From a virus: a DNA stretch of 20,374 bases. The translations under genes and the position numbers were made by a program. The notes beneath the pieces were generated by a model. The model was not told the origin of the DNA, made no database searches, and saw only the letters and a program-made list of their open reading frames with translations. Within the stretch, counting starts at the first letter, position 1; every line of letters starts with the position of its first letter. The stretch lies in the IMG/VR virus record IMGVR_UViG_3300029305_004297; one strand, given 5' to 3'. This document shows positions 285 through 2,007 of this stretch, piece after piece.

Positions 285-1151
285 ATGAACAGACCTAGTT
301 TAATTTTACTTGTCGGAATTCCCGGCTCAGGTAAAACTACATACGCAGAAAAATATATTAAAGAGAATCCCAATGCAGTACATCTTTCCTCTGACAAGAT
401 TCGTGAAGAACTTTGGGGCAACGAGGCCACTCAGGGCGACAACAACGAGGTTTTCTCTCTGATGCAGTCTAGGGCTATTGATGCACTAAACGACGGACAG
501 AGTGTCGTGTATGACGCAACGAACGTAACCAGAAAGGATAGATCTTACATTATTTCGCTTTGTCCCAAGTTTGCTAAGATTGAGTGCCATATTGTATGGG
601 CACCCATTGAGACTTGCATTGAAAGAGATGCTGACAGAGAGCGCACTGTTGGTAAGGAAGTAATTGATAAGATGTTGAAGCGGTTTCAACCTGTATGGTA
701 CGACGAGGGTATTGATGAAATCAAGATCGTTAGACCTAAGTATTTTGACATTGCAAAATATGGCCATCAAATTGTTGATGCAATGAATATTCCACACGAC
801 AATCCGCACCACTCTCTTTCAATTTATGACCATTGTGACAAAGCATGTACAATTGCAGAAAATCGTAAAATGGGTAGTGATCTTGAATGCGCTGCGTTTA
901 TTCATGATTGTGGCAAGCCTTATGTAAAAGCCTTCATTGATAGTAAAGGAAACACAAGTGATATTGCTCACTTTTATTCTCACGATAATGTAGGTGCATG
1001 GATGGCATATGGCGCAAGTAACGTACATATTGCATGGCTTGTTGGAAATCATATGGGGCCTTTTATGAATACTAAATATTACAACAAGCTTCCAATCTAT
1101 CTCAAGAAGCAAATTGATTTGTTGCACGAATGTGATTTGGAAGCGCATTAA
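285..1151 (+). CDS. bifunctional P-loop polynucleotide-kinase-like / HD-domain phosphohydrolase (putative RNA/DNA end-healing enzyme)
   Basis: N-terminal Walker A LVGIPGSGKTT, with a D-x-T/R kinase-like fold as in the T4 Pnk / zeta-like kinases. The C-terminal half carries His/His-Asp motifs (HHSLS, FIHDCGKP, YSHD, GNHMGP) typical of HD phosphohydrolases. Start ATG 285 is preferred over the upstream TTG 255 because a GGTGA SD sits 5 nt upstream and the ATG follows the upstream stop directly. Confidence 0.6.
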   Translation: MNRPSLILLVGIPGSGKTTYAEKYIKENPNAVHLSSDKIREELWGNEATQGDNNEVFSLMQSRAIDALNDGQSVVYDATNVTRKDRSYIISLCPKFAKIECHIVWAPIETCIERDADRERTVGKEVIDKMLKRFQPVWYDEGIDEIKIVRPKYFDIAKYGHQIVDAMNIPHDNPHHSLSIYDHCDKACTIAENRKMGSDLECAAFIHDCGKPYVKAFIDSKGNTSDIAHFYSHDNVGAWMAYGASNVHIAWLVGNHMGPFMNTKYYNKLPIYLKKQIDLLHECDLEAH

Positions 1152-1168
1152 AAGGAGGACAAATATTA

Positions 1169-2007
1169 TGCCAGTAAATGACGAATTGGGAATTCGTATG
1201 AAAACATATTACGAGCAGATTCCTAAGACGAAGTTAATGCGTAGAACGCCTGTGGCAATTAGAATTGATGGCAAAGCATTTCATACATTCACTAAAGGTT
1301 TCCAGAAGCCCTTTGATGAAGTTCTAATTAAGTCTATGCAAGCGACCATGAAATATCTTTGTGAAAATATTCAGGGCTGTGTTCTTGGTTATCACCAGTC
1401 TGATGAAATTACTTTAATTCTGGTTGATTATAAGAACCTAAATTCTGATGCGTGGTTTGAGTATGAAGTTCAGAAGATGTGTAGCATCGCTGCCTCTATG
1501 GCAACTATGGCGTTCAATAGGTCTTTTGCAAACGAATGTTGTCAATGGTTTGAAAATAACATTGATTGGAGCGATCCAGATGTTGTTTCAGCAGATGAAG
1601 ATATCAAAAAGCTGTTTAATGCCTATACTAAGGCTTGTGAAAAAGGTGCAATGTTCGATGCCAGAGTATTTAATATCCCTAAGGAAGAAGTCATGAATCT
1701 TCTATATTGGAGACAGCTTGATGCCACTAGAAATAGCATTCAAATGGTAGGTCAGGCAAACTTCTCTCACAACCAGCTACACGGCAAAAACTGCAGCAAC
1801 ATTCAGGATATGCTAATGCTAGAAAAGGACATTAATTGGAATGACTATCCGACGCATCTAAAGCGTGGCAGCTGTTGTGTCAAGAAGCCTTTCAAGATTA
1901 ATGAAGGCACCGATCAGGAAGCAATTCGTAACAAGTGGGTAATTGACACTGAGATCCCTATTTTCACGCAAGATAAAGATTATGTAAATAAATTGATTTT
2001 TATTTAA
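1169..2007 (+). CDS. Thg1-like protein (tRNA-His guanylyltransferase family 3'-5' nucleotidyltransferase)
   Basis: Strong RBS AAAGGAGG 9 nt before ATG 1169. VAIRIDGKAFHTF...KPFDE...GYHQSDEITLIL matches the Thg1/TLP signature (RxDGxxFHxF ... GQSDEyS). The in-frame ATG 1114 is rejected as a start because it overlaps the upstream gene and has no RBS. Confidence 0.75.

Follow-up and report, generated by a model that had tools for sequence, protein, structure and literature searches.

Why would a virus keep side by side a gene for an enzyme predicted to heal the ends of broken RNA and a gene for a polymerase predicted to rebuild RNA in the 3′-5′ direction, and with which partners would the two products work? 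The question is raised by a stretch of 20,374 nucleotides (nt) of viral DNA (IMG/VR record IMGVR_UViG_3300029305_004297), hereafter the window, by which the whole stretch analysed is meant, where positions 285 to 2007 encode a fusion of a polynucleotide-kinase-like domain with an HD phosphohydrolase domain (Pnk-HD) followed by a Thg1-like protein (TLP). An earlier reading made from the letters of the sequence, here called the original prediction, took this pair as a 5′-end counterpart of the Pnkp/Rnl1 repair system of phage T4. It is likely, on the analysis presented here, that Pnk-HD and TLP instead close a phage cassette of five genes for RNA repair, whose most likely substrate is tRNA. This cassette extends beyond the left edge of the window, and its order can be read on the window’s own contig (L012), which reaches further upstream: an Rnl5/DraRnl-like RNA ligase, an open reading frame (ORF) of 111 amino acids (aa), RlaP, Pnk-HD, and TLP.

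L012 5087-6523, plus strand: RNA ligase, DraRnl/Rnl5-like, ATP-dependent, 478 aa
L012 6550-6885, plus strand: 111-aa ORF between the ligase and RlaP, without family match
L012 6901-7710, plus strand: RlaP-like Pol-beta nucleotidyltransferase, 269 aa, whose last 94 codons are window 2-283
Window 285-1151, plus strand: Pnk-HD gene, 288 aa, ATG start
Window 285-728, plus strand: polynucleotide 5′-kinase domain, aa 1-148 of Pnk-HD
Window 732-1151 including the stop codon, plus strand: HD metal-dependent phosphohydrolase domain, aa 150-288 of Pnk-HD
Window 1153-1158, plus strand: Shine-Dalgarno sequence AGGAGG, 9 nt before the TLP ATG, inside the 16-nt spacer after the Pnk-HD stop
Window 1168-2007, plus strand: bacterial-type TLP, 279 aa, last cassette gene, predicted 3′-5′ template-dependent RNA polymerase
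Window 2016-2043, plus strand: sigma-70-type promoter, TTGACA-N16-TATAAT with extended TG, 9 nt past the TLP stop

The window is a phage-like genome with all its long ORFs on the plus strand. Its own contig L012 (JGI, 20.6 kb), found by exact-protein look-up, reaches 7.4 kb further upstream, so that L012 position 7712 is window position 285; the RNA ligase that the original prediction proposed to look for upstream of the window is indeed present there. A megablast of window positions 1-5200 against cultured phages gave no match, and the clade is an uncultured one with genomes of roughly 165-175 kb; its habitat, the mammalian gut, and its likely hosts, Clostridia, are judged from the records of metagenome-assembled genomes (MAGs). 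The family matches of Pnk-HD and TLP are much too strong to be due to chance, homologues of the two that share contigs number from hundreds to thousands in metagenomes, and the comparisons below rest on four sets of loci: (i) a related set of phage loci at 63-100% Pnk-HD identity, on contigs of up to about 167 kb; (ii) a broad survey of 80 IMG/VR viral loci with Pnk-HD homologues 30-66% identical, searched with a profile from a 10-sequence Pnk-HD alignment; (iii) a set chosen by TLP, of 80 genome or MAG loci with TLP 50-67% identical, scanned with a profile from the TLP alignment; (iv) and finally, 49 IMG/VR phage loci with homologues, 38-71% identical, of the window’s major vault protein (MVP), whose neighbours were counted within 10 kb.

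Whether the five genes form a unit can be judged from the spacing and from the promoters. Perfect TTGACA-N16/17-TATAAT promoters, of which 0.03 would be expected in the window, occur five times, all on the plus strand, each with an upstream TG and each just before a gene start. Besides the one that follows TLP, they are:

Window 2720-2747, plus strand: consensus promoter, perfect TTGACA-N16/17-TATAAT
Window 5253-5281, plus strand: consensus promoter, of the same form
Window 13088-13115, plus strand: consensus promoter, of the same form
Window 18189-18217, plus strand: consensus promoter, of the same form

The five promoters would split the window into transcription units, and the one at 2016-2043 would mark the start of the next unit after TLP. 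No perfect promoter was found in the 9.4 kb of L012 upstream of 2016-2043, and the spacers are short: RlaP and Pnk-HD are 1 nt apart, and the 16 nt that separate Pnk-HD from TLP contain a strong ribosome-binding site. The ligase, the 111-aa ORF, RlaP, Pnk-HD, and TLP therefore form one uninterrupted block.

The nature of the first protein is the point on which everything else turns, and the original prediction was right to see in it a P-loop polynucleotide-kinase domain joined to an HD phosphohydrolase. In profile searches aa 6-136 are assigned to Pfam AAA_33 (E 1.4e-27) and the protein to PHROG 505 “polynucleotide kinase” (E 1e-24), its best NCBIfam match is bacterial Pnkp (E 2.5e-18), and the top PDB sequence matches of the kinase domain are Pnkp1, the kinase domain of Clostridium thermocellum Pnkp (CthPnk), PSTK, and T4 Pnk. 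The AlphaFold model, made from 58 homologues, is very confident (pLDDT 96.7), and the nearest structural neighbours of the kinase domain are polynucleotide kinases, not nucleotide kinases. The Walker A P-loop GxxGxGK[ST] is present as GIPGSGKT (aa 11-18), with G16 and K17 invariant in the 58 sequences; the segment S36-D37-K-I-R40 lines up with SSDFCR in the kinase domain of CthPnk, D37 and R40 being invariant; and the lid arginines R118 and R120, equivalent to T4 R126, are conserved in at least 90%. Residues D37 and R40 presumably correspond to the catalytic aspartate (general base) and arginine, that is, to D38/R41 in CthPnk and D35/R38 in T4. The T4 enzyme is known to need R126 (PMC1997131). 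All this points to a kinase of the polynucleotide-kinase clade, for which a 5′-OH kinase activity would be expected.

It could be supposed that the fusion belongs rather to nucleotide metabolism, as a deoxynucleoside monophosphate (dNMP) or nucleoside kinase with an HD dNTPase or nucleotidase, the outcome that the original prediction itself named as contrary to its reading. ThyX and a guanylate-kinase-like protein are encoded within the window, and models of (d)CMP kinase and adenylate kinase give weak, sub-threshold matches (E about 3e-4); against this, the best kinase matches are polynucleotide kinases, nucleotide kinases are found as weak or low-Z matches, no dNTPase is among the top matches, and no dNTP triphosphohydrolase is among the top structural matches of the HD domain, which is homologous to that of the Pnkp of phage RM378. 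This candidate was accordingly rejected, and we consider it extremely unlikely.

In the HD half of the protein, aa 185-266 score 28.4 bits with the Pfam HD model, above its cutoff of 22 (E 2.2e-6), and the metal-binding pattern H...HD...D is complete, with H183, H207-D208, H233, H256, and D284 invariant and H176 conserved in at least 90%. A profile of the HD domain matches the N-terminal HD of RM378 Rm378p110 (aa 12-160, E 4e-15) and a profile of the kinase matches the C-terminal half of the same protein (aa 188-335, E 9e-23), so that the reversal of the domain order with respect to HD-Pnk, which had been noticed at the outset, is evident: kinase in aa 1-148 and HD in aa 150-288 here, and the reverse in RM378. 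For a C-terminal phosphatase of the HAD type (DxDxT) there was no match to Pnk-HD in Pfam, PHROGs, or NCBIfam. The solved structures that come nearest to the HD domain in fold are PhnZ and TmpB, both HD-fold diiron oxygenases, a tRNA nucleotidyltransferase, and further small HD domains, and as these neighbours include oxygenases the chemistry of the domain is not readable from the fold alone; by analogy with the characterised enzymes, it is predicted to be a 2′,3′-cyclic phosphodiesterase and 3′-phosphatase, RM378 Pnkp being cited as the one enzyme whose HD domain has shown 3′-phosphatase activity (PMC1997131).

The characterised HD-Pnk enzymes (RM378 Pnkp, Runella slithyformis HD-Pnk, and DRB0098) are made of the same two families, an HD phosphoesterase and a T4-type kinase, placed HD-then-kinase, whereas in the window the kinase comes first; the reversed order therefore makes the window Pnk-HD a permuted relative and not a member of HD-Pnk in the strict sense. 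The Runella enzyme has in addition its gene next to a ligase (PMC6097658). The kinase-then-HD architecture is common, with 680 proteins at E < 1e-30 among 1.84 billion representatives, mostly of 290-320 aa and full length, and the full-length homologues of Bacillus siphophages carry the annotation “polynucleotide kinase.” An enzyme so abundant in phages and, so far as we have found, uncharacterised is therefore a straightforward biochemical target.

The second gene of the pair (1168-2007) is as clearly Thg1-like as was originally proposed. With Pfam Thg1 (PF04446) it scores 103.8 bits (cutoff 29.2, E 8e-30) and with Thg1C 19.7 bits (E 1e-3), which falls short of that model’s cutoff of 26.3; PHROG 4717 “tRNA-His guanylyltransferase” matches at E 5e-94; and the best PDB match by phmmer is BtTLP, the TLP of Bacillus thuringiensis (4KGK, E 1.2e-64), in an alignment that spans residues 2-115 and 126-238 of the 245 in the BtTLP chain. 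In an alignment of homologues from cultured phages and metagenomes, E16, R32, D34, F38, H39, S78, D79, E80, and R166 are invariant, and, mapped by hand from the pairwise alignment, they are E12, R28, D30, F34, H35, S74, D75, E76, and R131 of BtTLP, residues which in that protein are the metal-binding carboxylates, their supporting residues, and the nucleotide contacts (PMC3701042). The three catalytic carboxylates, whose absence had been named as grounds for abandoning the assignment, are thus kept: D34, D79, and E80 are D30, D75, and E76 in BtTLP and D29, D76, and E77 in the human protein. All the catalytic and triphosphate-binding residues of BtTLP (D30, D75, E76, E12, R28, and R131; 4KGK/4KGM) are therefore found again in the phage protein, which has an insertion of about 40 aa with respect to BtTLP.

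The HINNLYN of a tRNA(His) guanylyltransferase, chain 5xox, is replaced in the phage protein by RQLDATRNSIQMV, and this replacement makes it a bacterial-type TLP, the motif being missing likewise from BtTLP and other TLPs. The bacterial-type subgroup performs templated 5′-end repair in vitro. The window TLP, closest in sequence to the bacterial TLPs, would by the same token be expected to carry out templated addition to 5′-truncated tRNA. HINNLYN itself is eukaryote-specific and reads the anticodon of tRNA-His (PMC6471195).

Two segments of TLP are hypervariable across 121 family members, aa 121-155 (1528-1632) and aa 241-252 (1888-1923), with column entropies of 2.7 and 2.1 bits, respectively, against 0.6 bits elsewhere; the first lies within the insertion of about 40 aa (aa 120-160). 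These segments could be a surface under diversifying pressure.

A polymerase of this family might also serve the maturation of the phage’s own tRNAs, by G-1 addition to tRNA-His or by 5′ editing, rather than the repair of damage. TLPs carry out tRNA-His G-1 addition, as well as mitochondrial 5′ editing in Dictyostelium (PMC6471195), and in related phages arrays of 11-16 tRNA genes stand 8-10 kb upstream of the cassette. However, the 72 phage tRNAs of six related loci include no tRNA-His, and 67 of them have a fully paired acceptor stem and 66 an encoded CCA; the one clean phage tRNA-His, in the distant locus L229, already encodes G-1 opposite C73, in a locus that has no TLP; and the window TLP is without HINNLYN, the reader of the tRNA-His anticodon. 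As no need for a G-1 adder or 5′ editor was seen among the 72 tRNAs, this role was rejected, and we regard it as very unlikely.

The ligase upstream of the pair has its matches in PHROG 968 (E 2e-61), in NCBIfam RNA_lig_DRB0094 (E 9e-13), and in two Pfam models, the PHA02142 OB-fold domain and RNA_ligase, which together speak for the DraRnl/Rnl5 architecture. Its homologues all keep the lysine K188 of motif I, E431-G432 of motif IV, and K454 of motif V, and the sequence of its motif I, K-M-H-G-T, resembles the K-I-H-G-T of T4 Rnl2. The full RlaP protein matches PHROG 388 “nucleotidyltransferase” (E 1e-17) and, below the cutoff, Pfam RlaP (E 1e-3), and a phmmer search of PDB gave no significant match to it. 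Small conserved ORFs of 111-131 aa, without family match, like the one between ligase and RlaP, lie in other loci between ligase and RlaP or between RlaP and Pnk-HD (e.g., L004 9645-9989).

How far these neighbours are kept decides which of them are partners. Within the related set, RlaP stands at most 1.2 kb upstream of Pnk-HD in all 10 loci that include the upstream sequence, and an RNA ligase further upstream in all nine with enough sequence, Rnl5-like except in L008, where it is T4 Rnl1-like; TLP follows Pnk-HD directly in seven of 12 loci (two of the 12 being short contigs), lies 0.9-4.4 kb downstream in four, and in the remaining one, L011, is not found within 10 kb. The spacing varies in part because of homing endonucleases inserted in relatives, a LAGLIDADG gene between Pnk-HD and TLP (L006 10958-11746) and an HNH gene between the 111-aa ORF and RlaP (L001 7711-8817). 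In the broad survey, kinase and HD are in one ORF in all 80 loci, and an RNA ligase lies within 8 kb of Pnk-HD, mostly abutting, in 68 (by type and over the 80 loci, Rnl5-like in 50, Rnl1-like in 15, other in five), RlaP is near in 22, and TLP in eight. These proportions lead us to see Pnk-HD as mainly the end-healing partner of a ligase, and TLP as an accessory, added by this phage clade as the last gene of its cassette. Among cultured phages TLP mostly stands alone; in Bacillus phage PK-3, RnlA is followed directly by Pnk-HD, with TLP 50 kb away.

These counts also bear on the two-gene form of the proposal, in which Pnk-HD and TLP would be a self-contained, ligase-independent module for tRNA 5′ ends, the kinase phosphorylating and TLP extending. 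The two genes are adjacent, with a 16-nt spacer, and keep this order in seven related loci, and TLP requires a 5′-phosphate such as the kinase is predicted to supply (PMC2904730). But the neighbour that is conserved beside Pnk-HD is the ligase and not TLP; RlaP and the ligase share the promoter-free block with the pair; L011 has Pnk-HD and no TLP within 10 kb, and in phages PK-3 and FADO both genes are present more than 50 kb apart; and a 3′-phosphoesterase domain would be purposeless if only 5′ ends were repaired. That the pair by itself is a 5′-end counterpart of T4 Pnkp/Rnl1 is thus an idea that the survey did not bear out (ligase at 68 of 80 Pnk-HD loci, TLP at eight), and we think it unlikely.

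In many related phages a stand-alone polynucleotide kinase with a calcineurin-type metallophosphoesterase directly behind it replaces Pnk-HD (L190, L203, L204, L212-L215, L218, L223, L231-L233, and others). In these the phosphoesterase module has been displaced, its position in the cassette remaining the same.

Another possibility is that Pnk-HD heals DNA ends during replication, recombination, or repair, together with an NAD-dependent DNA ligase and a RecJ-like nuclease, its link with RNA being incidental. The window encodes PolIII-alpha, NAD-dependent DNA ligase (LigA), a RecD-like helicase, and a RecJ-like protein; Runella HD-Pnk is called a DNA/RNA end-healing enzyme in a title cited by PMC6097658, and DRB0098 of D. 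radiodurans phosphorylates DNA 5′-OH ends (PMC1997131). Nevertheless, the immediate and conserved neighbours of Pnk-HD are RNA ligases of the Rnl5 and Rnl1 types, RlaP, and TLP, while the DNA ligase is about 10 kb away, behind several consensus promoters, which makes a function on DNA quite improbable.

The reading that we prefer is therefore to be looked for in the five-gene cassette, which would be a classical heal-and-seal system with two optional nucleotide-restoring enzymes, RlaP for 3′ ends and TLP for 5′ ends. What the protein domains are, that their catalytic residues are intact, and that the gene linkage is conserved are matters of observation; from analogy with the known enzymes we infer the activities, the RNA substrates, and a role in countering host nucleases. 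The proposed steps would be the following: (i) the HD domain would open the 2′,3′-cyclic phosphate and remove the 3′ phosphate, and the kinase domain would phosphorylate the 5′-OH, like HD-Pnk and T4 Pnkp; (ii) if nucleotides had been lost, RlaP would add one or two at the 3′-OH end, as it does with one or two nucleoside monophosphates on damaged RNA (Carruthers et al., 2025, preprint, PMC12776372); (iii) TLP would build lost nucleotides back onto the 5′-monophosphate made by the kinase, copying a template strand, in the acceptor stem for instance, given that TLPs are described as restoring missing 5′ nucleotides in a templated manner (PMC4820378) and that the kinase of related operons is predicted to make the 5′-phosphate that Thg1 uses (PMC2904730); (iv) and finally, the ligase would seal any nick. 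The likely purpose would be to undo the damage done by host tRNA-cleaving nucleases, in the manner in which T4 reverses that of the host anticodon nuclease PrrC (PMC2610378; for the “syntax” of phage RNA repair, PMC7824862). In other words, of the original proposal the healing and rebuilding of tRNA along the lines of T4 Pnkp/Rnl1 is retained, with an RNA ligase now in place, and the restriction to a two-gene unit is replaced by a cassette of five genes.

Several points weigh against this interpretation. To our knowledge no host nuclease yields 5′-truncated tRNA in phage defence, so that the TLP step, lacking a known trigger, is the weakest of the four. The link of TLP with Pnk-HD is weak outside this phage clade, as the eight of 80 loci indicate, and among the loci chosen by TLP a kinase is nearby in 12 of 80 and a Pnk-HD fusion in only one of 80. 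The L012 ligase stays under the curated cutoffs of the Pfam and NCBIfam models that it matches, and phmmer gave nothing significant for it in PDB; the HD domain has its nearest structural neighbours in diiron oxygenases (PhnZ and TmpB) and not in proven RNA phosphoesterases; and our search of the literature yielded no biochemical study of the kinase-then-HD order.

With what is known of other systems the cassette shares each of its parts. The linkage of Thg1 with kinases, that of RlaP with ligases, the HD-Pnk enzymes, and the activity of RlaP have already been published; the cassette is a new combination of these known modules in an uncultured phage clade. The bacterial operons of Thg1 with a polynucleotide kinase, sometimes with RNA ligase and Macro genes nearby, follow the same logic of a kinase-made 5′-phosphate used by Thg1, which has also been reported in a tailed phage (Anantharaman, Iyer and Aravind, 2010, PMC2904730); here, in contrast, the pair belongs to a phage, its kinase is joined to an HD domain, and both genes sit inside a ligase-RlaP-Pnk-HD-TLP cassette. 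With T4 Pnkp and Rnl1 it has in common the heal-and-seal logic of a phage-encoded 5′-kinase/3′-phosphoesterase and an RNA ligase (PMC2610378), although the phosphoesterase is HD and not a DxDxT acylphosphatase, the ligase is Rnl5/DraRnl-like and not Rnl1 (except in the relative L008), and RlaP and TLP are added as two nucleotide-restoring enzymes. Deinococcus encodes DRB0094, a ligase of the DraRnl type, the family that the cassette ligase resembles. In the RlaP systems an RlaP-family Pol-beta nucleotidyltransferase stands beside an RNA ligase (PMC12776372), as it does here, where TLP joins in and where the RlaP match is weak in Pfam and clear in PHROGs. Finally, in the modular RNA-repair “syntax” of jumbo phages, whose systems hold sporadic Thg1, RlaP, kinases, and HD-type phosphatases (PMC7824862), the modules counted are a ligase, nucleotidyltransferases, end-modifying enzymes, and a scaffold or cofactor protein that may come with a cognate non-coding RNA; ligase and nucleotidyltransferases are both present here, the latter as RlaP-like protein and TLP. 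The cassette thereby offers a genetic setting in which to ask which RNA damage TLPs reverse in cells, and whether phages use 5′-end rebuilding against defences that target tRNA.

Beyond the promoter that follows TLP, the next large gene raises a further question, that of a scaffold, and it lies 0.8 kb downstream of TLP.

Window 2801-5188, plus strand: MVP homologue with SPFH/Band-7-type shoulder domain, 795 aa, with its own promoter at 2720-2747

The protein matches Pfam MVP_shoulder (E 4e-23), Vault_3 (E 6e-8), and Band_7 (E 6e-5). At least one RNA-repair gene is found within 10 kb of MVP in 43 of the 49 phage loci, often immediately beside it: an RNA ligase in 31, a polynucleotide kinase in 26, RlaP in 25, a metallophosphoesterase in 25 (abutting the kinase where both were seen), and TLP in 14, in six of which it directly abuts MVP. 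The kinase is fused to HD in only one of these loci (L188); in the single phage represented by L138 and L188, Rnl1, RlaP, Pnk-HD, and MVP are contiguous. The gaps between MVP and the ligase gene in other phages are filled by small ORFs. The linkage of MVP with repair holds while the type of ligase, the type of phosphoesterase, and the gene order vary; since these loci do not count as independent phylogenetically, the figure of 43 in 49 is to be read as suggestive and carries no formal statistic.

Phage MVPs were described in a 2023 preprint, with no functional context given, and a part in RNA repair has been attributed to bacterial MVP homologues by Burroughs and Aravind (2016), as stated in PMC13404743. 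The position of MVP inside RNA-repair neighbourhoods is thus as in bacteria, here in a phage setting and with no associated non-coding RNA detected: Rfam, at gathering thresholds, gave no match in the window, in L012, or in seven MVP loci, and ARAGORN found no tRNA in the window, so no vault-RNA-like or tRNA-like cofactor was found. MVP is put forward as a candidate scaffold associated with RNA-repair cassettes. That ligase, RlaP, Pnk, and TLP might work with the phage MVP in a vault-like shell or scaffold built by the virus for tRNA repair during infection is a more speculative step, suggested by the gene linkage, which we hold as doubtful though conceivable. If it were true, it would give a physiological context for the bacterial-type TLPs and a prokaryotic system in which the function of MVP and of vaults becomes tractable. 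The recurrence of MVP in these phage neighbourhoods lends independent support to the earlier proposal of MVP-type scaffolds in RNA repair.

A Macro gene (7091-7516) directly precedes a gene for a PARP-like ADP-ribosyltransferase (7517-8752), 1.9 kb downstream of MVP, and the pair is kept in the close relatives L001, L004, L108, and L109. That MVP and PARP form a conserved vault-like pair was considered and rejected: PARP or Macro genes are near MVP in none of the 49 other loci, and the Macro-PARP pair is in three of the 80 Pnk-HD loci, so that the resemblance to vaults is not a conserved linkage. In the cultured Fusobacterium phage Fnu1 (L014, 4998-5750 and 6392-7201), a gene of the prohibitin/SPFH family lies 650 bp downstream of TLP, a proximity that echoes that of TLP and MVP in the window.

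Among the other genes of the window, besides the Macro and PARP domains, the guanylate-kinase-like protein, and the MVP homologue, the RecJ-like one calls for a correction of its start. The consensus promoter at 5253-5281 falls inside the mechanical ORF 5213-7057 (GTG at 5213), and because of this the true start is probably the one called by JGI, L012 12736, which is window 5309. The gene that had been pointed out at the outset as possibly tRNA-associated is confirmed as follows:

Window 9349-9795, plus strand: YqeY/GatB-like domain protein, Pfam YqeY E 4.7e-18

It is also near the cassette in L001, L006, and L011, and the order RlaP, YqeY, TLP, MVP is found in L205, L225, and L234, so the gene seems to recur loosely in RNA-repair neighbourhoods. 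Between it and the DNA ligase gene lie a 115-aa bactofilin-like repeat protein (9792-10139) and a 304-aa cysteine-rich protein without family match (10222-11136).

The tRNA arrays of related phages are 8-10 kb upstream of the cassette in L101-L106 and L009-L011, and are seen also in L193, L211, L226, L232, and L236. Nearly all of their tRNAs encode CCA, and several arrays have an anticodon CTA (amber suppressor) or odd anticodon loops, which hints at a recoding of TAG in part of this phage group.

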